Assembly (NCBI RefSeq): GCF_054482525.1
Contig: NZ_CM137006.1
Length of the DNA: 64,000 nucleotides
Reading direction: 5' to 3' (one strand)
Of this stretch, positions 35,437-61,298 are shown one piece after another. Numbering within the stretch: the stretch's first letter is position 1; the number at the start of each line of letters is the position of its first letter. Under the pieces are notes generated by a model. That model ran no database searches. It saw nothing but the letters and a program-made list of their open reading frames with translations, and had not been told where the DNA came from. A program made the translations under genes and the position numbers.

Positions 35437-36711
35437 GTGGCAAAAAACATTCAAGCCATTCGCGGCATGAACGATTACCTGCCTGGCGAAACGGCCATCT
35501 GGCAGCGCATTGAAGGCACACTGAAAAACGTGCTCGGCAGCTACGGTTACAGTGAAATCCGCTTGCCGATTGTAGAGCAGACCCCGCTATTCAAACGTGC
35601 GATTGGTGAAGTCACCGACGTGGTTGAAAAAGAGATGTACACCTTTGAGGATCGCAATGGCGACAGCCTGACTCTGCGCCCTGAAGGGACGGCGGGCTGT
35701 GTACGCGCCGGCATCGAGCATGGTCTTCTGTACAATCAGGAACAGCGTCTGTGGTATATCGGGCCGATGTTCCGTCACGAGCGTCCTCAGAAAGGGCGTT
35801 ATCGTCAGTTCCATCAGTTGGGCTGCGAAGTTTTCGGTCTGCAAGGCCCGGATATCGACGCTGAACTGATTATGCTCACCGCCCGCTGGTGGCGCGCGCT
35901 GGGTATCTCCGAGCACGTAACTCTTGAGCTGAACTCTATCGGTTCGCTGGAAGCACGAGCCAATTACCGCGATGCGCTGGTGGCATTCCTTGAGCAGCAT
36001 AAAGAAAAGCTGGACGAAGACTGCAAACGCCGCATGTACACTAACCCGCTGCGCGTGCTGGATTCAAAAAATCCGGAAGTGCAGGCGCTTCTCAACGACG
36101 CTCCGGCATTAGGCGATTATCTGGACGAGGAATCTCGTGAGCATTTTGCCGGTCTGTGCAAACTGCTGGAGAGCGCGGGGATCGCTTACACCGTCAACCA
36201 GCGTCTGGTGCGTGGTCTGGATTACTATAACCGTACCGTTTTCGAGTGGGTGACTAACAGTCTCGGCTCCCAGGGCACCGTGTGTGCAGGCGGTCGTTAT
36301 GACGGTCTGGTGGAACAACTGGGCGGTCGTGCAACACCGGCTGTCGGTTTTGCGATGGGCCTCGAACGTCTTGTATTGTTAGTACAGGCCGTTAATCCGG
36401 AATTTAAAGCCGATCCTGTTGTCGATATATACCTGGTGGCTTCAGGTGCTGATACACAATCTGCGGCTATGGCATTAGCTGAGCGTCTGCGTGATGAATT
36501 ACCGGGCGTGAAATTGATGACCAACCACGGCGGCGGCAACTTTAAGAAACAGTTTGCCCGTGCTGATAAATGGGGTGCCCGCGTTGCTGTGGTGCTGGGT
36601 GAGTCTGAAGTGGCTAACGGCACAGCAGTAGTGAAGGATTTGCGCTCTGGTGAGCAAACGGCAGTTGCGCAGGATAGCGTAGCCGCGCATTTGCGCACGT
36701 TACTGGGTTAA
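35437..36711 (+). CDS. hisS: Histidyl-tRNA synthetase
   Basis: 424 aa; class II aaRS motifs ([17 protein letters not shown]). Confidence 0.9.
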
Positions 36712-50190: not shown

Positions 50191-50297
50191 TAACTTGTTA
50201 CCTCGGTTTGTTACCGTTGAGGTAATGATTATGCGTATTTGGTTTGGTGTCAATAGATATGAGTTAAAAAAATTACCCACAAGGTAATCTTGCTGGC

Positions 50298-50344: not shown

Positions 50345-50929
50345 TTATTGTTTGCTTTTTTCGTTCTGGTTGATGACAAATTCAATGTAACTTTCGATCT
50401 TTGCTTTCTCGGTTTCGGGTAACAATGCGTAGCGCGAGCGGTCATAGTTGATAGTCGCAGGGTCGTGCGGGTGAATCAGTAATTCATAGCCGTGACGCCC
50501 GAATGCGGATGCAACATTCTCCAGGGTGGAAATGGAAACGCTGACCTCATTGTTTAACAGGCGGCTGATTGTCACCTGGGCGACGCCGGATGCGCGGTGA
50601 AGTTTTCCCTGTGTTGAAAGGTCGCGGCTTTCGCTCATCCAGCGTTCCAGGTTGTGAGCCGCCAGCTGACCAATGTCGCTTGGGCCGACAGGCTGAAAAC
50701 CTTCCTGAGAAAGCGAGCGATCGATATCAAGCCAGTTACGGGGTTTATTGGCGGCAGCTTCAATTTTTCGCGCAACCTGGTCGCCGATAACCTTCTTACC
50801 AAGAGCCCAGCGGTTTACCAGATTTGCCTGAGTTCCAAGTTTTTCTGCCATCCGCGTCTGAACACCATTGAATTCACGGTCGATCAAGTCGTTGAGATTT
50901 TGCCTGCGGACGTCCTGGATACTTTTCAT
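50345..50929 (-). CDS. CI-like prophage repressor with two HTH segments, no S24 peptidase domain
   Basis: 194 aa; HTH-like segments (TRMAEKLGTQANLVNRW and GVAQVTISRLLNNE); divergent from Cro-like gene; no Ala-Gly/Ser-Lys autocleavage motifs seen. Confidence 0.7.
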   Translation of the reverse strand: MKSIQDVRRQNLNDLIDREFNGVQTRMAEKLGTQANLVNRWALGKKVIGDQVARKIEAAANKPRNWLDIDRSLSQEGFQPVGPSDIGQLAAHNLERWMSESRDLSTQGKLHRASGVAQVTISRLLNNEVSVSISTLENVASAFGRHGYELLIHPHDPATINYDRSRYALLPETEKAKIESYIEFVINQNEKSKQ

Positions 50930-51083
50930 TTTCTGGAAAATCGCCTCATATATGAATCAGTAGATGATTCAATTTAAAGCAATATTACCCAACAGGTAAA
51001 TGCACCCCATAGGTAACTATCCTTGATTTTTGTTACCTTATGGGTGAATATTTATTATCTGAAATAAATATCAGGCAATAGCT
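50930..51083. promoter_or_regulatory. Immunity-region divergent promoter/operator (PRM/PR equivalent)
   Basis: Contains TTACCCAACAGGTAA (50985-50999) and near-copy TTACCTTATGGGTGA (51033-51047). Confidence 0.7.
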
Positions 51084-51314: not shown

Positions 51315-51336
51315 TATCCAGCCACAACCCTCTGTA

Positions 51337-51360
51337 GACCGCCACCCGGCGGTCTTTTCA
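51337..51360 (+). terminator. Rho-independent terminator (tR1-like) after cro-like gene
   Basis: gaccgccacccggcggtc hairpin followed by ttttca. Confidence 0.6.
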
Positions 51361-51462
51361 TATCTATTCGTACCTCAAAGGTAATAAAAAACCAAATCTG
51401 GTTGATCAAATTTTCCAATTGTGCAAAATAGCCAATATCAATAACAAAAAGGGGCGGAAAAA

Positions 51463-51675: not shown

Positions 51676-52486
51676 GGTTGAAGTTATCACTCCTGATAAA
51701 CCTGAAATTTTTCAGATAGCAGAAATTCTGGGTATTGATCCAGATGCTGTTCTTGGAAAGCTGGTTCGTATATGGGCATGGGCTGACCAGCAAACAATAG
51801 ACGGTAACGCTGGCAGCGTTACAAAAGGAGTACTTGATAGACTCGCTTTTATTACAGGATTTGCTGACGCCCTCATTAGCGTCGGATGGCTTGCTTATCA
51901 TGACGGCAAACTAATTCTTCCAAACTTTGAGCGACACAATGGAGAATCATCGAAAAAACGTGCACTTACGAATAGAAGAGTGGCAGAGCATCGAAAACGA
52001 GTAACGCAAAAAGTAACGCCAACAGCGTTACAAAAGGAGTTACCAGAGGAAGAGGAAGAGGAAGATATATATAAAACCCCACACATAGCGCACGTGCGCG
52101 AGGGTGCTCCGACCAGTGAAGCGAACAGTACGCCGTTGCAGGTGGCAGAACCTGAATTTCTGGATGGCCTGAGTGAACCCATCGGGAAATTTCCGATGAC
52201 AGATGGCTGGCTACCGTCGCCAGATTTTCGGCGGCGTGCTGCGCTGTGGGGAACGGCCCTGCCGGAACCGGAATTTACACCTGCTGAACTTGCTGCATTC
52301 CGGGATTACTGGATGGCTGAGGGCAAAGTGTTCACGCAGGTTCAGTGGGAACAAAAATTCGCCAGGCACGTAAATCATATCAGGGGAAAATCAAAAAATG
52401 CCGGGAAAAGCGATGAGCTTGACTGGAATAACACTGACTGGATAGAAGGGGTGTGGGATGAAATCAACTCCAGAACTTCTCAATGA
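51656..52486 (+). CDS. Replication initiator (O-like) with DnaT-like C-terminal domain
   Basis: ORF 51638..52486 (start at MASSWIKVEV assumed); internal iterons; acidic EEEEEED linker; followed by P-like gene. Confidence 0.7.
   Translation: MASSWIKVEVITPDKPEIFQIAEILGIDPDAVLGKLVRIWAWADQQTIDGNAGSVTKGVLDRLAFITGFADALISVGWLAYHDGKLILPNFERHNGESSKKRALTNRRVAEHRKRVTQKVTPTALQKELPEEEEEEDIYKTPHIAHVREGAPTSEANSTPLQVAEPEFLDGLSEPIGKFPMTDGWLPSPDFRRRAALWGTALPEPEFTPAELAAFRDYWMAEGKVFTQVQWEQKFARHVNHIRGKSKNAGKSDELDWNNTDWIEGVWDEINSRTSQ
51800..52080. promoter_or_regulatory. Putative phage replication origin (iterons + AT-rich segment inside O-like gene)
   Basis: Repeated GTAACGC/GCGTTAC motifs; 17-bp exact repeat agcgttacaaaaggagt at ~51813 and ~52024; then gaagaggaagaggaagatatatataaaa. 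Confidence 0.55.
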
Positions 52487-53234
52487 GTACGATCGCTTAC
52501 GTGAGCATGGTGTTGCTGTGCATGAAGAGCGGCGTGACAGCAATGGCAAAAAGGAGCAGGTTGCTAGAATTTTCAATGAACTATTTGTCCAGTTACAGGC
52601 TGCATTTCCTGCAAGCGTTTCGACCATAAGGGAGCAGAACAAACTTAATGAATTCCGTAAGCAATGGATGCTTGCGTTTCTGGAGAATGGGATCACTACA
52701 ATGGAACAGGTTAACGCTGGTATGCGCCACGCCCGCGCCAGTGAATCTCCGTTCTGGCCGTCGCCAGGGCAATTCATCAAGTGGTGCAAAGACAGCAAGA
52801 TGGTTCTTGGCGTCACCATTGACGATGTGATGGCGGAGTTTCACCGGTACAGCAAGGAAAAAAGTTTATATCCTGGTGGTCCCGAAAGATTCCCGTGGCG
52901 ACATCCGGTTATGTACTGGGTCGTATGTGATACCCGCCGTGCAATGTATCAGCGCCAGCTTAGCGAGATTGAGGTTGAGAAACACGCGCGCAGGCTGCTC
53001 GATGATTGGGCGAAAAAGGTGGCTTCCGGACAGCAGATACCCGATCCGGTGATCAGCATACAGGCAAAGCCAGAACCCATGAGTACGCCTCCTGACACTG
53101 GGAGAGACGTTTACCATCCACCAGGGCGAAGTTTCGGGTGCATGCCTAACGCCGCCACCCTGGGGGGAATAACACCGGCGCAGTGGCTGATAGAGGAATA
53201 CAGGCGGGGAAAGGCGGCAGGATTTATCAAGTAA
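52458..53234 (+). CDS. Replication protein P-like helicase loader
   Basis: 258 aa; strong similarity to lambda P as I recall it (…FPASV…REQNKLNEFRKQWMLAFLENGITTMEQVNAGMR…). Confidence 0.85.
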   Translation: MKSTPELLNEYDRLREHGVAVHEERRDSNGKKEQVARIFNELFVQLQAAFPASVSTIREQNKLNEFRKQWMLAFLENGITTMEQVNAGMRHARASESPFWPSPGQFIKWCKDSKMVLGVTIDDVMAEFHRYSKEKSLYPGGPERFPWRHPVMYWVVCDTRRAMYQRQLSEIEVEKHARRLLDDWAKKVASGQQIPDPVISIQAKPEPMSTPPDTGRDVYHPPGRSFGCMPNAATLGGITPAQWLIEEYRRGKAAGFIK

Positions 53235-53351
53235 TACCAGCGCGATAGCGCATTTTTTTACGCCTACATGATTACCTGTTGGGTAATAAAATGTTCTAAT
53301 CTCTATTGATTTCATGTCTTATGTGGTTTTTAATTACCTAAGGGGTAAATC

Positions 53352-53696
53352 ATGAGAAAACAGATACAGGCTCTTGGTCGACTCAAAACAGGCCAAATGA
53401 ACAAAACAGAATCTGCGTATTGCCAGCACCTTGAGCTGCGTAAACGTGCAGGAGAAATCGTCTGGTATCGATTTGAGGGTATCAAGCTGCGGTTAGCTGA
53501 CAACACGTTCTATACGCCCGATTTTGCTGTGATGCTCGCCACCGGCGAGATGGAACTGCACGAAGTGAAAGGTTTCTGGACCGACGACGCCAGGGTGAAA
53601 ACCAAAGTCGCCGCAGATCAGTATCCGTTCCGAATCATCGGGGTAACGGTTAAACCAAAGAAAGCAGGTGGTGGCTGGAACATCGAAGAGTTCTGA
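53352..53696 (+). CDS. Small PD-(D/E)XK-motif protein (DUF1064-like)
   Basis: 114 aa; YTPDF … ELHEVKG resembles PD…(D/E)xK. Confidence 0.5.
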   Translation: MRKQIQALGRLKTGQMNKTESAYCQHLELRKRAGEIVWYRFEGIKLRLADNTFYTPDFAVMLATGEMELHEVKGFWTDDARVKTKVAADQYPFRIIGVTVKPKKAGGGWNIEEF

Positions 53697-53757: not shown

Positions 53758-54276
53758 ATGGAAAGTAATATCAAAGGGTTAGTTGCCGCCGGGCATGAGA
53801 TGGCTTCGGAACTGAAAGCAGAATGTGGTGCCGTTGATATGCGCAGTGTGGCAAAGCTGATCAGCGATTTGGCAACGCAACTGGAAGTGCAACTGGTGCG
53901 TGCTAATGCGCTGGCGGCGGAGAATGAGCTGGCTCGTAAGGCAGTTCAGGCATTCTGCGATGTTGTTGGCGACAACACCGAGGTTATCGCTGAGGTGGTT
54001 GGGCGAGATGGCGTTCTGGTTATTTTGGAGGCCATGAAGGCAACAGGAAATATGCCAGCCACCGATGCTTTCCTGGCTGAAGTGCGGGCGCAGGGCGTGG
54101 ATGCTGCTATAGAAGCTGCAAAAAATCTGGTGGCCCAAGAATATGAGTATAAGGATTTCAAAGCGGCGCAGAGTGATTGCTGTATGCACCCTGGTTCAGA
54201 TCTGGTAGGGAAGGTTGAAATGACTGAGTGGTTAGTTGACTTTGCTGCCCAGCTTCGCAAAGGAGGCAACCAGTGA
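53758..54276 (+). CDS. ead/Ea22-like phage protein
   Basis: 172-aa acidic coiled-coil-like ORF in nin-like region. Confidence 0.45.
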   Translation: MESNIKGLVAAGHEMASELKAECGAVDMRSVAKLISDLATQLEVQLVRANALAAENELARKAVQAFCDVVGDNTEVIAEVVGRDGVLVILEAMKATGNMPATDAFLAEVRAQGVDAAIEAAKNLVAQEYEYKDFKAAQSDCCMHPGSDLVGKVEMTEWLVDFAAQLRKGGNQ

Positions 54277-54761
54277 GCGAAATTAATTACCAGGCACTGC
54301 GTGAGGCGGCGGAACGTGCAATTCCAGCAATGGAACGCCTGTTAATGTTGCCAGCTGATGATGATTTGTTAAGTGAACAGGAACTTAAAGATTACGGTGT
54401 GGATATTGATGCGCTCAACGCCTTCAAATTTCTGGCCGGACCAGAAACCGTGCTGGCACTACTGGATGAACGGGAAAGGAACCAGCAATACATCAAATCC
54501 CGCGACCAGGAGAACGAGGATATTGCGCTAACGGTAGGGAAGTTGCGCGTTGAGCTTGAGGCAGAAAAACAGCGGGCAAAGGATCTGTTTATGGAAAATG
54601 CTCGGCTTAAGTCAGGTATAGCCGGTCTGATACACCTCGGTATTCGATATGCAGATGTTGATGTCATGAAAATTGCTGGAGATGCCCAGCTTTCTACCCC
54701 ATGCACTGACAGCATCATAAACAGCATTGCAACAGGCATTCGCATCAACGGAGGTGAGTAG
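54273..54761 (+). CDS. ead/Ea22-like phage protein
   Basis: 162 aa; MSEINYQALREAAE… N-terminus typical of Ea22-like proteins; overlaps previous gene stop. Confidence 0.5.
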   Translation: MSEINYQALREAAERAIPAMERLLMLPADDDLLSEQELKDYGVDIDALNAFKFLAGPETVLALLDERERNQQYIKSRDQENEDIALTVGKLRVELEAEKQRAKDLFMENARLKSGIAGLIHLGIRYADVDVMKIAGDAQLSTPCTDSIINSIATGIRINGGE

Positions 54762-54841
54762 TGCGTGTGGCATGTATTGGCTTGTTACCGTACCCGACTC
54801 GTTTTTGGGCTTCTGCGCTAATTGCAAAGCCACAGGTCCTG

Positions 54842-54937
54842 ATGGCTGACAACATCACCCCAGCACCAAAGCGCCGCCATACCGGTATTGCAGCGGCACG
54901 ACGAGCAGCAAAGAGACGCAGGAGAGCAAAGCGATGA
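54842..54937 (+). CDS. Arg-rich micro-ORF (A)
   Basis: MADNITPAPKRRHTGIAAARRAAKRRRRAKR; its TGA overlaps the next ATG (ATGA); start could be GTG at 54761. Confidence 0.35.
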   Translation: MADNITPAPKRRHTGIAAARRAAKRRRRAKR

Positions 54938-55110
54938 AAAACCGTAAGGCAAAACGACTTTTTTTACAGCGACCTGTGCGTGTGGTGGAGCTGGTTATTA
55001 GCAACCATAAGATAGCGGTACTCCATCCATTTGGTCAGGTGGCTTTTGCCGCAAAGCGTAAGCCTACTGCGTCACAGAACAGGCGGAAGAAAGGGTACGC
55101 AGTAAGATGA
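54934..55110 (+). CDS. Basic micro-protein (B), paralogous N-terminus MKNRKAK
   Basis: 58 aa; ATGA-coupled to next ORF. Confidence 0.4.
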   Translation: MKNRKAKRLFLQRPVRVVELVISNHKIAVLHPFGQVAFAAKRKPTASQNRRKKGYAVR

Positions 55111-55295
55111 AAAACCGTAAAGCAAAGATTCTGTTAGTTCGTAGAAACGCTCCTGGCGTCTGGCAGTGGGTGAGACTCAGCAACCGACGGATGGGGTTGA
55201 TGAAATATTACGGGATGATGGATTGTGGTTTTTGCAAAAAGCCCAGCGCGGCGCAAAACCGCTGGAAAAACCATTTGCGCACTAAAGGAGAGTGA
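55107..55295 (+). CDS. Basic micro-protein (C), paralogous N-terminus MKNRKAK, Cys pair
   Basis: 62-aa ORF in track; same MKNRKAK start as ORF B. Confidence 0.5.
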   Translation: MKNRKAKILLVRRNAPGVWQWVRLSNRRMGLMKYYGMMDCGFCKKPSAAQNRWKNHLRTKGE

Positions 55296-55296
55296 T

Positions 55297-55812
55297 ATGG
55301 CGTTAACACACCGCGAACTCTGTCAGATTGCGTACAAGTTCCTTAAGCGCAACGGGTTCAAGGTTTGTTTTCATGACCGCTTTATAGCTGTAACCAGTAC
55401 CGGAGAACAGCCAGATGCTATGGGGTTCAGAAATTCAGCATCATGCCTGATAGAGGCGAAGTGTTCTCGTGCTGATTTGTTGGCAGATAGAAAAAAGCGT
55501 TTTCGTAAAAATCCGTCTCTTGGAATGGGCGACTGGCGATTCTTTATTAGTGAGCCGGGAATTATTTCAATTGAGGATTTACCACCTGGCTGGGGATTAC
55601 TTCACGTTGTTAACGGAAGAGTACGGAAAGTACATGGGTGGCCCAAGGGTAATTGCTGTTGGGGTAACCCTGAAGATAAACCTTTTATTGGGAATAAGCA
55701 GGTTGAATGCGATTACATGTTATCTGCATTAAGGCGCATGGAGTTGAGAGGGCACCTTAATGAAATATATGACGGTGTAATTGTTAATAAGAAAGAAGGA
55801 AACGCGGCATGA
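55297..55812 (+). CDS. Hypothetical protein with PD-(D/E)XK-like motif
   Basis: ORF 55225..55812, start at MALTHREL assumed (RBS ggag); motif …QPDAMGF…CLIEAKCS…. Confidence 0.5.
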   Translation: MALTHRELCQIAYKFLKRNGFKVCFHDRFIAVTSTGEQPDAMGFRNSASCLIEAKCSRADLLADRKKRFRKNPSLGMGDWRFFISEPGIISIEDLPPGWGLLHVVNGRVRKVHGWPKGNCCWGNPEDKPFIGNKQVECDYMLSALRRMELRGHLNEIYDGVIVNKKEGNAA

Positions 55813-56204
55813 TCACTATTACCAATAAGAAACAGTATCCCAGCGAGCAATATCTTAATGAGCTGATCACCAACATAGAGTTTGCTGCAAGGGCACCAGT
55901 TGAAGTCGTGAGAGCAATGGCAGCAGAGCTACAGAAGCGGCGCGAAGCTGATAGCGCAGAACCAGTTGCTTATATTTTCAAACATCCGGCCGGGAAATTA
56001 TTCTGGGCTTTAACGGATGAAAGTAATAAAGAGCAAGCGGACGTTATTCCTGTTTATGCCGCCCCTCCAGTGCCAGTAGTACCTGAAGAAAAACCAATGC
56101 CTAACCCTCTTAAAATGTACGCGGTCGATGCTGTTGCCGCTATTGCAGAGGTGAGAGGCTGGAATGCCTGCCGCGCCGCCATGCTTCAGGGTAAAGGAGA
56201 GTGA
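55809..56204 (+). CDS. Hypothetical phage protein
   Basis: 131 aa, overlapping start/stop with neighbours. Confidence 0.45.
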   Translation: MITITNKKQYPSEQYLNELITNIEFAARAPVEVVRAMAAELQKRREADSAEPVAYIFKHPAGKLFWALTDESNKEQADVIPVYAAPPVPVVPEEKPMPNPLKMYAVDAVAAIAEVRGWNACRAAMLQGKGE

Positions 56205-56205
56205 T

Positions 56206-56415
56206 ATGGCTATTGCCGCAAGTTACACCATGCATCTCTATTGTGACTGCCGCCAGTGTACGGAAGGTGTATATCCAGTGCCAGACTTCGGTGAGTATAT
56301 CGGTACGTCATGGTCTGGTTGTGCAAAAGAGGCCCGTAAAGACGGGTGGCGAATAAGCGCCGACAAAACACGTGCTTTTGCGCCCGGGCATAAAGTTTTG
56401 AGGATTAACACATGA
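56206..56415 (+). CDS. Hypothetical Cys-rich small phage protein
   Basis: 69 aa from ATG at 56206 (ORF track 56164..56415); CDC…C…C pattern. Confidence 0.4.
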   Translation: MAIAASYTMHLYCDCRQCTEGVYPVPDFGEYIGTSWSGCAKEARKDGWRISADKTRAFAPGHKVLRINT

Positions 56416-57215
56416 CCACTATTACCAAAGAACGTATTGAATTGTTCATTAAAAATCCGCTTGAAAACGGGCTTACTCGTGGCGAACAAATGGAACTGGC
56501 ACGAATTGCACTGGCATCACTGGAACGCGAACAGATTCGCCACGAGCATGCCAAATGGTCTGACTCCACATTTGGCTGCGTTGGCCCCATTGGTCCACTG
56601 AAACACCTCTCAAAAGAGGCACTGGAAGCCGCAGCCGAACCAGACGATCTTAGCGAGTGGGCTGATATGCAGTTTCTGTTGTGGGATGCACAGCGCCGTG
56701 CTGGCATCAGCGATGCTGAAATTAACGTTGCTATGGAAGATAAATTGAAGATCAACATGGAGCGCCAGTGGCCTGAGCCAAAAGATGGTGAGCCTCGCTT
56801 GCACATTAAAGAACCCGGCAACTCTCCGGTAATTCCGGATGGTTTATCCACGGTATGCGCTGAGGCTTATCAGGTTGTAGGAGTTATGGCAGATGCGCTT
56901 GGTGTATTCGGTGATGCAGCAGTACAGAACGTTCTGGATAACCTGTCACAGCAAAAACTTGTTCACAGAGATGTGCTGCCGTTCTCGCTTCCGGCAACTC
57001 CGGATGGTTGGATAAGCTGTAGTGATCTAATGCCGGAAGACACCAAAATGTTACTGGCATTTAGTCAAGGTGAAATCGTGGCAGCATATTGGAACTGGGT
57101 TGTAAATCCAATTGATTACAAAAAATATAGAGCTTTCACGTATTTATCAGGAAATATCTTGGATGACGTAACCCACTGGATGCCGCTACCAGAACCGCCG
57201 CAGGAGGTGAAGTGA
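56412..57215 (+). CDS. DUF550/DUF551-like nin-region protein
   Basis: 267 aa; C-terminal …WISCSDLMPED…HWMPLPEPP typical of DUF551 as I recall it. Confidence 0.5.
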   Translation: MTTITKERIELFIKNPLENGLTRGEQMELARIALASLEREQIRHEHAKWSDSTFGCVGPIGPLKHLSKEALEAAAEPDDLSEWADMQFLLWDAQRRAGISDAEINVAMEDKLKINMERQWPEPKDGEPRLHIKEPGNSPVIPDGLSTVCAEAYQVVGVMADALGVFGDAAVQNVLDNLSQQKLVHRDVLPFSLPATPDGWISCSDLMPEDTKMLLAFSQGEIVAAYWNWVVNPIDYKKYRAFTYLSGNILDDVTHWMPLPEPPQEVK

Positions 57216-57565
57216 TGGACTATTCACAGTTAAGTGATTTTGAAATTAACAGAATGGTAGGAGACATAATTTTTAAAGGCCTTTGGGCGTGTAAACCGGA
57301 AACATCAGGGAATAACACCAACAAATGGTATTACGGAAATACTGATACAACTTTTGAGCCATTAAACCCTTTACCTGACTACTGCAATAATCCATCGGAT
57401 GCATGGCCTATTATTGTTGATAATAAAATCAGTCTAACCTGCCACCAATCTCGCGGTGAGTGGTCAGCTGTTTTTAATGTCGAGAACATTTGCTTTCATG
57501 CGAATAATCCACTCCGAGCCGCCATGATTGTATTTCTCATGATGCAGGAAAATCAGAATGGCTAA
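57212..57565 (+). CDS. NinX-like protein
   Basis: 117 aa; N-terminus MDYSQLSDFEIN resembles NinX/DUF2591 family. Confidence 0.5.
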   Translation: MMDYSQLSDFEINRMVGDIIFKGLWACKPETSGNNTNKWYYGNTDTTFEPLNPLPDYCNNPSDAWPIIVDNKISLTCHQSRGEWSAVFNVENICFHANNPLRAAMIVFLMMQENQNG

Positions 57566-57896
57566 ATCAGCAGCAGAGCGCAAAGCCGCTCAGAGAGCCA
57601 GACAAGCTGCATCTGGTGTGCGTAAGCTGGAGATTGTGCTTGATGCTCAGGAAATTGAAATGCTTGAGCGTAACTGTGCCGCACGTCGCCCCGGGCGTGC
57701 GCCTTACGAATTTGGTGAGTATATAGCGTTACTGATCCGCCAGGATGATGCACGCGTGCGCGGGCGTATAAAATCGATCAGTAGAAAACGTTGCGGTAAG
57801 TGCGGCGAGAGAGTTCCCGTTAATTCATGCCCGTGTAATGGTGACTCGCAATGCTGGGTGACTAAAGGCTGGTATGAAACGAAATTAATAGTGTGA
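57558..57896 (+). CDS. Small basic protein with C-terminal Cys cluster (possible regulator)
   Basis: 112 aa; CGKCGERVPVNSCPCNGDSQC zinc-ribbon-like; last gene before terminator and terminase. Confidence 0.45.
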   Translation: MAKSAAERKAAQRARQAASGVRKLEIVLDAQEIEMLERNCAARRPGRAPYEFGEYIALLIRQDDARVRGRIKSISRKRCGKCGERVPVNSCPCNGDSQCWVTKGWYETKLIV

Positions 57897-57945
57897 CATG
57901 TCACGAGTAGATTATGCATGATGAATTTGACGGGTTTTGAATACT

Positions 57946-57971: not shown

Positions 57972-58014
57972 GCATGGTACTATTACCACAACGGTAACTA
58001 TTACCACGGTGGTT

Positions 58015-58611
58015 ATGATGCCTGCTGAACCTAAAACCTATAAACGCAAATCAACGCAATTTAAGCCACTAACAGCAATGCAGGAGGCTTATTGCCAGTC
58101 ATACATCAAAACGCCTGAAAACCAGACTCAGGCAGCGATTAACGCAGGATTCTCCCCAAATACAGCGGCAGTTAAAGCCAGTGTCATGATGCGCGATGAA
58201 CGCATTCAGAAACGGATTGCCGAGTTGATGGAGGAGCGCAACAAACGAATGCGCGTCAGTGCTGATTACGTTCTCATGCGCCTGGTGGAGATCGACCAGA
58301 TGGACGTTATCGACATCCTCAACGACGATGGGAGCCTTAAACCAATCCGTGAGTGGCCGAAAATCTGGCGCACTACGCTTAGTGGCTTTGATCTGTCATC
58401 GACCATCATGAACATGAACGAGGATTCGATAGAGACAATCCTCAAAAAAATTAAATGGCCTGACAAGGTGAAGAACCTTGAGCTGATTGGTAAGCATGTT
58501 GATGTCAATGCGTTCAAAGAACGTCTGGATGTTAATGTGAATGTGACAATTGCTGATCGCATAGCGGCAGCCAGGAAGAGACTGAAAGAACGTCAGGATG
58601 GCAATCAGTGA
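58015..58611 (+). CDS. Terminase small subunit
   Basis: ORF 57937..58611; start placed after terminator at MMPAEPK; sequence resembles small-terminase proteins; directly precedes large subunit. Confidence 0.7.
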   Translation: MMPAEPKTYKRKSTQFKPLTAMQEAYCQSYIKTPENQTQAAINAGFSPNTAAVKASVMMRDERIQKRIAELMEERNKRMRVSADYVLMRLVEIDQMDVIDILNDDGSLKPIREWPKIWRTTLSGFDLSSTIMNMNEDSIETILKKIKWPDKVKNLELIGKHVDVNAFKERLDVNVNVTIADRIAAARKRLKERQDGNQ

Positions 58612-60871: not shown

Positions 60872-61298
60872 AACGCTGAGAGCACTTAGCCTGTTAAGGC
60901 GCCACACTTTGTCGCGGCTCCATAAATGCTCTCATCGTTGTACCCTCGTCTCTTCCGAGGTGTCACACCGAATCGCCGGGATGGTGAATCCCCGTGCGCG
61001 GAATAAAACCGCTCGACTTGCACATTCCGGCTACCTGGTTCGTTTGCCCGAGCAAGGGAGGGTGCCCCTTAAACGTATCCAGACCGCTATCGGCGCATGT
61101 GCCATACGCCGTACTGCTCAAAATAAAAGCTCACCCCACCTGTTCAATTTAACGACAAGCCAGTCAGATTAGTAACTGGAGTGAATTCTTTGGTTACCTG
61201 AAAGGTAATAATTCGTGCGTTAAATGTCAACTGTCTACGATAAATAAATCATATGTGGTTAAATTGGTAATAATTTAATTGCGTACGGAGTCATTGAT
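60872..61298. promoter_or_regulatory. ~430-bp non-coding region upstream of portal; likely promoters for tRNA/moron (leftward) and portal operon (rightward)
   Basis: No credible ORF; contains TTACCTGAAAGGTAA at 61204-61218 and AT-rich -10-like sequences. Confidence 0.45.

Follow-up and report, generated by a model that had tools for sequence, protein, structure and literature searches.

A DUF1064 gene in an epsilon15/phiV10-like prophage: a probable junction nuclease behind its own putative repressor-controlled promoter

We analyzed a 64,000-nucleotide (nt) stretch of contig NZ_CM137006.1 from RefSeq assembly GCF_054482525.1 (the whole stretch is called the window below), with attention to an open reading frame (ORF) of 114 amino acids (aa) at 53352–53696 and to the 117-base-pair (bp) gap in front of it. 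Taken together, the results make it fairly likely that this ORF is a DUF1064 gene for a T7-endonuclease-I-like junction nuclease and the first gene of its own repressor-controlled operon. An earlier note on this DNA had read the ORF as a minimal PD-(D/E)XK nuclease with separately regulated expression, placed where phage lambda has ren. That finding is real and was correctly read, but it is ordinary, and much of it was already known from the RefSeq and phage annotation, a superfamily prediction of 2005, the resolvase label in PHROGs and the annotation of repressor sites in epsilon15.

The region of the window that holds the gene was 99.9% identical to Escherichia phage HEMP4 and 97–98% identical to vB_EcoP_ZX5, TL-2011b and phiV10, and because of this identity of 97–99.9% we assigned it to a Uetakevirus (epsilon15/phiV10-like) prophage of Escherichia coli. 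The prophage encodes its own RecT and RecE-like genes. The genes on which the argument rests are as follows.

50345–50929, minus strand: prophage repressor (Rep), presumed binder of TTACC-N5-GGTAA; full-length homologue of SPC32H Rep (PDB 5d50), E = 3.5e-42
52458–53234, plus strand: lambda-P-like replication gene (Pfam Phage_lambda_P, E = 1.7e-55), last gene of the preceding transcription unit
53352–53696, plus strand: DUF1064 gene, 114 aa, predicted PD-(D/E)XK T7-endonuclease-I-like structure-specific nuclease
53409–53411 (E20), 53520–53522 (D57), 53562–53564 (E71) and 53568–53570 (K73), plus strand: predicted catalytic codons

Family, fold and predicted active site

The ORF started with ATG, with AAGGGG 6 nt upstream. 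As the earlier note had described, it carried YTPDF (residues 54–58) and ELHEVKG (residues 68–74) and was separated from the P-like gene by a gap of 117 bp (53235–53351). We judged it to be a real gene because its product matched PHROG_190, which is labelled "Holliday junction resolvase" (E = 7e-43), Pfam DUF1064 (PF06356; residues 18–92, 31.3 bits against a gathering cut-off of 24.7, E = 2.9e-7) and 6854 homologues at E<=1e-3 in a 90% collection, which formed 4671 clusters at 50% identity. Orthologues carry the RefSeq name DUF1064, and the gap together with the ORF was found in 528 of 5426 complete E. coli genomes, where the gene is named "DUF1064 domain-containing protein". Proteins of equal length with equal motifs were phiV10 gp45 (97% identity; DUF1064, phage phiH ORF25 family), SPC32H_045 (94%) and gp36 of Pseudomonas phage F116 (81%), and there was no difference of substance between the window protein and the DUF1064 family. 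This family (Pfam06356) was first placed in the PD-(D/E)XK superfamily by Kosinski, Feder and Bujnicki (2005), by computational prediction only. A PDB sequence search returned no DUF1064 structure, only marginal matches to T7 endonuclease I and Bax1.

The homologues in TL-2011b (JQ011317, 8307–8649) and YDC107_2 (CP025713, 16418–16760) were each matched in two pieces over 343 nt, which implies a one-base frameshift, either of a pseudogene or from a sequencing error. In vB_EcoP_PAS61 (OQ921333) and EC.W1-9 (PP445227), a 97%-identical orthologue is labelled "helicase subunit of the DNA excision repair complex", which looks like a mis-annotation. Bacillus subtilis YqaN, considered as a DUF1064 member, was dropped, as the SPP1 G44P paper calls it a RusA homologue.

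The structure prediction proposed in the earlier note gave a model with both the fold and the active site of a nuclease. The AlphaFold2 monomer model, built on an alignment of 61 diverse homologues, had a mean predicted local distance difference test (pLDDT) of 92.3 and a predicted template-modelling score (pTM) of 0.82, with uncertainty confined to the first 10–17 residues. It showed the restriction-endonuclease-like alpha/beta core, in the order helix, strands, helix, strands, and placed the acidic residue E20 on helix 1 and P56-D57 and E71-V-K73 on strands 2–3, in the PD-(D/E)XK arrangement. In the same alignment, E20, D57 and G74 were invariant, and P56, E71 and K73 were conserved in at least 90% of the sequences. 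The nearest structural neighbours of the model were all PD-(D/E)XK nucleases (Hjc, Hje, VRR_NUC, TnsA and Bax1). Among the predicted viral structures of BFVD, the best match was an "Endonuclease I-like superfamily protein" (E = 4e-15, template-modelling score 0.90), followed at lower ranks by T7-type endonuclease I and T4 gp4-type head-completion nucleases. The Pfam match, the confident model and the alignment of the tetrad with T7 endonuclease I thus supported the prediction that the 114-aa protein is a PD-(D/E)XK nuclease, as the earlier note had proposed.

The nearest characterised relative of this predicted nuclease is T7 endonuclease I (gene 3; PDB 1fzr/1m0d). Comparison by hhalign gave 94% probability and E = 1e-7, and both proteins belong to the same superfamily. 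The catalytic residues of the T7 enzyme, which we take to be E20, D55, E65 and K67, fell in the same columns as E20, D57, E71 and K73 of the window protein, both in a joint MAFFT alignment and in the hhalign comparison. The motifs (S/T)xE...LE, YTPDF and hhE.KG.W..D.R.K and a conserved proline were common to the two. Archaeal Hjc and Hje (PDB 1gef, 2wcw, 1ob8 and 1hh1) were more distant, with 10–14% identity and an undetectable sequence relation.

Several results weigh against so specific an identification. Foldseek comparison of the model with the PDB gave weak E-values of 4e-3 or higher, and a phmmer search of the PDB reached T7 endonuclease I at E = 0.2 only. The protein scored 14.9 bits with Pfam Phage_endo_I (PF05367), below the threshold of 29.1, and it is 35 aa shorter than the T7 enzyme and lacks its basic C-terminal extension of about 40 aa; because of this sub-threshold score and the missing extension, we regard it as a relative and not a member of the T7 endonuclease I family. 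In the literature searched, there was no biochemical assay of any DUF1064 protein, so that substrate specificity rests on inference. Finally, a 171-aa ORF at 55297, further down the operon, has a possible second PD..EAK motif.

A genomic slot shared with RuvC

The strongest functional evidence for the DUF1064 gene was its genomic position. In Salmonella phage epsilon15 and Enterobacter phage Tyrion, a 154-aa RuvC-family resolvase (Pfam RuvC, E = 1.9e-5), gp43 and gp45, respectively, occupies the slot that directly follows the replication genes. This gene stands behind an operator pair equal to that of the window gene and with equal spacing, so that the slot and the regulatory cassette are the same. 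A tblastn search of six phages found exactly one of the two genes in each, DUF1064 in the window prophage, phiV10, SPC32H and BUCT554, and RuvC in epsilon15 and Tyrion; Klebsiella phage BUCT711, which was read separately, also had DUF1064 in this slot. When phage records across the database that bear DUF1064 were compared with those that bear RuvC, no accession was common to the two sets among the matches listed. RuvC has an RNase H-like fold and the window protein a PD-(D/E)XK fold, and these folds are unrelated; the swap is a non-orthologous displacement between junction nucleases and not a matter of homology.

The neighbourhoods of more distant homologues also contained recombination genes. 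The 81%-identical homologue of phage F116 lies near a NinB/Orf recombination mediator, with one HNH gene between them, just before the terminase genes, and a homologue in a Vibrio phage shares its region with RdgC and an exonuclease. The other genes of the window operon included no recognisable RusA, Rap or RuvC. Because RuvC fills the identical slot in sister phages, and in view of this recombination-gene context, we infer a junction-resolving or debranching role, and the window gene most likely encodes a phage Holliday-junction resolvase or debranching nuclease. Its probable functional counterparts, likely with the same job, are Rap/NinG and RusA in the nin regions of lambda and lambdoid phages. 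By analogy with T7 endonuclease I and Hjc, the nuclease would act as a dimer in which E20, D57, E71 and K73 bind Mg2+, and it would nick branched DNA arising from RecE/RecT-type phage recombination and from replication, which would leave concatemers fit for packaging.

A different target for the same enzyme has to be considered, namely that the nuclease mainly attacks host DNA, as a source of nucleotides, to make recombinogenic ends or in a restriction-like manner, instead of phage recombination intermediates. Kosinski, Feder and Bujnicki (2005) offered degradation of host DNA as a speculation for Pfam06356, breakdown of host DNA is also among the activities of T7 endonuclease I (PMC3485210), and the SPC32H record names its 94%-identical orthologue "putative restriction endonuclease". 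However, the gene and a RuvC-family resolvase replace one another within one slot and cassette, the phage is temperate and has its own RecE/RecT module, and there was no adjacent methyltransferase partner in the window. We therefore consider host attack as the main role unlikely. The two roles are not mutually exclusive and may coexist, because T7 endonuclease I performs both (PMC3485210).

Operators and the control cassette of the gap

Seven perfect copies of the motif TTACC-N5-GGTAA were present in the window, where 100 shuffles gave an expectation of 0.05; with one mismatch allowed, there were 13 copies and an expectation of 1.1. All seven perfect copies lay between 50211 and 61194; those at 50211, 50273 and 50985 flanked rep, and the gap held two, as would be expected of an operator. 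The earlier note had reported the perfect copy at 53334–53348, which was found as described, and had missed the second at 53272–53286, 62 bp upstream. The motif was enriched and present at the immunity region also in phiV10, epsilon15, SPC32H, BUCT554, Tyrion and BUCT711. With one mismatch allowed, there were 14 copies in phiV10, 15 in epsilon15 and 18 in SPC32H, mostly intergenic. The half-sites were the same in all seven phages examined, among which we had looked for a Uetakevirus with a different repressor. The window system thus resembles the Rep system of SPC32H and epsilon15, with a homologous repressor and the same 15-bp palindrome both at the immunity region and elsewhere in the genome. 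Rep is summarised in PMC9638917 as a tetramer on palindromic sites, with DNA-binding domains contributed by different dimers. In the epsilon15 record (NC_004775), seven such palindromes are marked "protein_bind: repressor" as a predicted annotation, among them the site orthologous to 53272–53286 (35906–35922, ahead of the RuvC gene). The perfect proximal palindrome of epsilon15, at 35969–35983 over the ribosome-binding site, is without annotation.

The gap and the region of the leftward promoter (PL) contained the following elements.

53240–53259, plus strand: weak element resembling a terminator, directly behind the P-like gene (GCGC-GATA-GCGC hairpin at 53240–53251, then A and T7 at 53253–53259)
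53272–53286: distal operator TTACCTGTTGGGTAA, perfect TTACC-N5-GGTAA
53306–53311, plus strand: -35-like hexamer TTGATT, 19 nt after the distal operator; its TTGA is invariant in the 12 cassettes described below
53329–53334, plus strand: -10-like hexamer TTTAAT, 17 nt after the -35-like hexamer; the proximal operator begins at its last T
53334–53348: proximal operator TTACCTAAGGGGTAA, perfect TTACC-N5-GGTAA; ends 3 nt before the ATG
50324–50305, minus strand: rep terminator, ahead of the PL-type cassette
50211–50287, minus strand: PL-type cassette with the layout of the gap (operators at 50273–50287 and 50211–50225; -35 TTGACA at 50253–50248; -10 AATCAT at 50230–50225)

The two gap operators were 62 bp apart, centre to centre. 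The Shine-Dalgarno sequence AAGGGG (53340–53345) lay inside the proximal operator, whose right half supplied its run of G. This operator was likewise placed in phiV10, BUCT554, Tyrion, epsilon15 and SPC32H; the distance from its end to the ATG was 3 nt in six phages and 5 nt in BUCT711. To compare the control regions, the gap and the reverse-complemented PL region were aligned in the window prophage and five relatives, giving 12 cassettes. In all 12, the order was the same and free of indels: hairpin, about 12 nt, a 15-bp operator, 19 nt, TTGAnn, 17 nt, nnnnAT and a second 15-bp operator. No variation was seen in the half-sites, in TA-TTGA or in the AT of the -10, whereas N5 and the spacers were variable. 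The hairpin with its T-run was found in 10 of the 12, the T-run being missing from the PL cassettes of epsilon15 and SPC32H. After the P-like gene, GCGC-N4-GCGC-A-T7 was recognisable in all seven phages (exact in six, variant in BUCT711), and the phiV10 record marks a putative terminator at this hairpin. The fold of the window hairpin had a free energy of -7.4 kcal/mol and a z of -3.4.

Because the gap matched the control layout of PL and the proximal operator held the Shine-Dalgarno sequence, the window gene probably heads its own operon under repressor control. The separately regulated expression suggested in the earlier note is thus supported by comparison, with two operators that bracket a conserved -35/-10 pair in PL geometry behind a terminator-like hairpin. 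As we envisage it, the weak hairpin after P would close the unit of the rightward promoter (PR), and a sigma-70-type promoter, TTGATT-17-TTTAAT, would lie between the two 15-bp operators, the proximal one covering the edge of the -10, the start site and the Shine-Dalgarno sequence. In the lysogen, the Rep-type repressor is expected to occupy the putative gap operators and, bound to both, would block RNA polymerase. After release mediated by an antirepressor, the promoter would fire as that of an early/middle operon from 53352 to about 57896, with the DUF1064 gene first and a transcript spanning the nuclease gene and the packed genes of the same strand down to the regulator at 57558–57896. T7 itself is a lytic phage, and repressor control, as proposed for the window gene, does not apply to its endonuclease I gene.

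The results that tell against a promoter of its own are the same ones that speak for another explanation, in which the gap sites have no promoter, transcription of the gene comes from PR and passes the hairpin, and the sites serve as roadblocks, looping anchors or targets of the Cro-like protein. The hairpin is just 4 bp, and in two phages it folded no better than shuffled sequence; because it is weak, read-through from PR may contribute. A strict sigma-70 scan called no promoter in the gap, and TTGATT-17-TTTAAT was missed solely on account of the T at the second position of the -10; the claim of a gap promoter therefore rests on the comparison of the 12 cassettes. The predicted start site, at about 53341, would give a very short leader of 10–12 nt with the Shine-Dalgarno sequence at its 5' end. 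However, the TTGA core and the AT of the -10 were invariant at fixed distances from the operators in 12 of 12 cassettes, and the layout of the gap was identical to that of PL, where the scan calls TTGACA-17-AATCAT. On this evidence, transcription from PR as the only source seems improbable to us, and a promoter of the operon's own is preferred.

The remaining explanations concern the product of this operon's first gene. A Ren-like, superinfection-exclusion or defence function was hinted at by position, as ren directly follows P in lambda. The position itself agreed with the earlier note, and the implied relation did not hold: comparison with the lambda Ren profile by hhalign gave 0.45% probability and E = 0.13, and in the lambda record ren overlaps the end of P with no gap, whereas the window gene has its own operators and a terminator-like hairpin. 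Rap/NinG, further down the nin region, is the more likely lambda counterpart. PADLOC and NCBIfam returned no match, and with operators over its promoter the gene would be expected to stay off in the lysogen, the very state in which exclusion would have to act, so that the hinted exclusion role was abandoned and this explanation is very improbable. Equally hard to credit is a DNA-binding protein that has retained the nuclease fold and lost catalysis, since the four catalytic positions, aligned with those of T7 endonuclease I, were invariant or nearly so in the 61 diverse homologues.

The import of these observations is modest: for DUF1064, a large domain of unknown function, they provide a hypothesis that is concrete and cheap. 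This domain is carried by about 10% of the complete E. coli genomes and by thousands of phage lineages, and the swap with RuvC in one fixed slot predicts junction-resolving activity. The window also displays the layout of early transcription in epsilon15-like phages, in which PL and the resolvase operon have exactly the same 62-bp twin-operator design; this repeated use could help in understanding the tetrameric "trans" model that has been published for DNA binding by SPC32H Rep. A wider proposal, which is plausible and which we hold tentatively, is that DUF1064 proteins are distinct, very widespread, compact T7-endonuclease-I-like resolvases that swap freely with RuvC in a rigid "caged promoter" cassette of Uetakevirus, where one Rep tetramer clamps operators 62 bp apart, the proximal one being the ribosome-binding site of the first gene. 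We found no mention of three points in the accessible literature, which did not extend to the primary papers on epsilon15 and SPC32H, and each of them may be known: that the cassettes of PL and of the resolvase operon are exactly identical, that an unannotated proximal operator contains the Shine-Dalgarno sequence, and that the swap between RuvC and DUF1064 can be read as evidence of function.

The rest of the operon and other control regions

Downstream of the DUF1064 gene, the following features were recorded.

53758–57896, plus strand: tightly packed genes, probably one transcription unit with the DUF1064 gene
55297–55812, plus strand: 171-aa ORF of unknown function (PHROG_9263/631) with "...GEQPDAMGF...CLIEAKCS...", a possible second PD-(D/E)XK motif
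56412–57215, plus strand: dATP/dGTP pyrophosphohydrolase domain (Pfam, E = 2.4e-41) fused to DUF551
57212–57565: NinX homologue
57558–57896: PHROG_536 transcriptional regulator, directly before the packaging genes

The first products of the packed genes were a PHROG_492 protein of unknown function, in the slot of the eae-like gene of the phiV10 record, Ead/Ea22 and small ORFs, and the later ones were the 171-aa protein, the dATP/dGTP pyrophosphohydrolase-DUF551 fusion, NinX and the PHROG_536 regulator. The 171-aa ORF had no match in Pfam, NCBIfam or PADLOC.

A third control region of similar design was observed after the cro-like gene (51336–51430), ahead of a 70-aa ORF and the replication genes. 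Its parts were the following.

51336–51355: strong terminator
51370–51384: one-mismatch operator GTACCTCAAAGGTAA
Within the same region: conserved promoter-like sequence GGTTGATC...CAAAAT

The early right arm appears to be split into terminator-bounded units whose separate promoters answer to one and the same repressor, and not to be governed by lambda-type antitermination. The operator layout was different in the PR/PRM region (50985–51058), with a perfect site at 50985 and a one-mismatch site at 51033, 48 bp apart. The site at 51033 fell between a -35 TTGTTA and a -10 TATTAT; the operator spacings at PR/PRM of the Salmonella phages were 17 and 30 bp.

Operator copies were also present just upstream of the gene for the terminase small subunit, terS (57983–58015; a perfect copy at 57983 and a one-mismatch copy at 58001). 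Because these sites fall inside the extension that it creates, the TTG start of terS at 57937 is probably too early. A further copy lay at 61194–61208, ahead of a gp3-like gene, and the copies at 57983, 58001 and 61194 mirrored sites in phiV10 and epsilon15.
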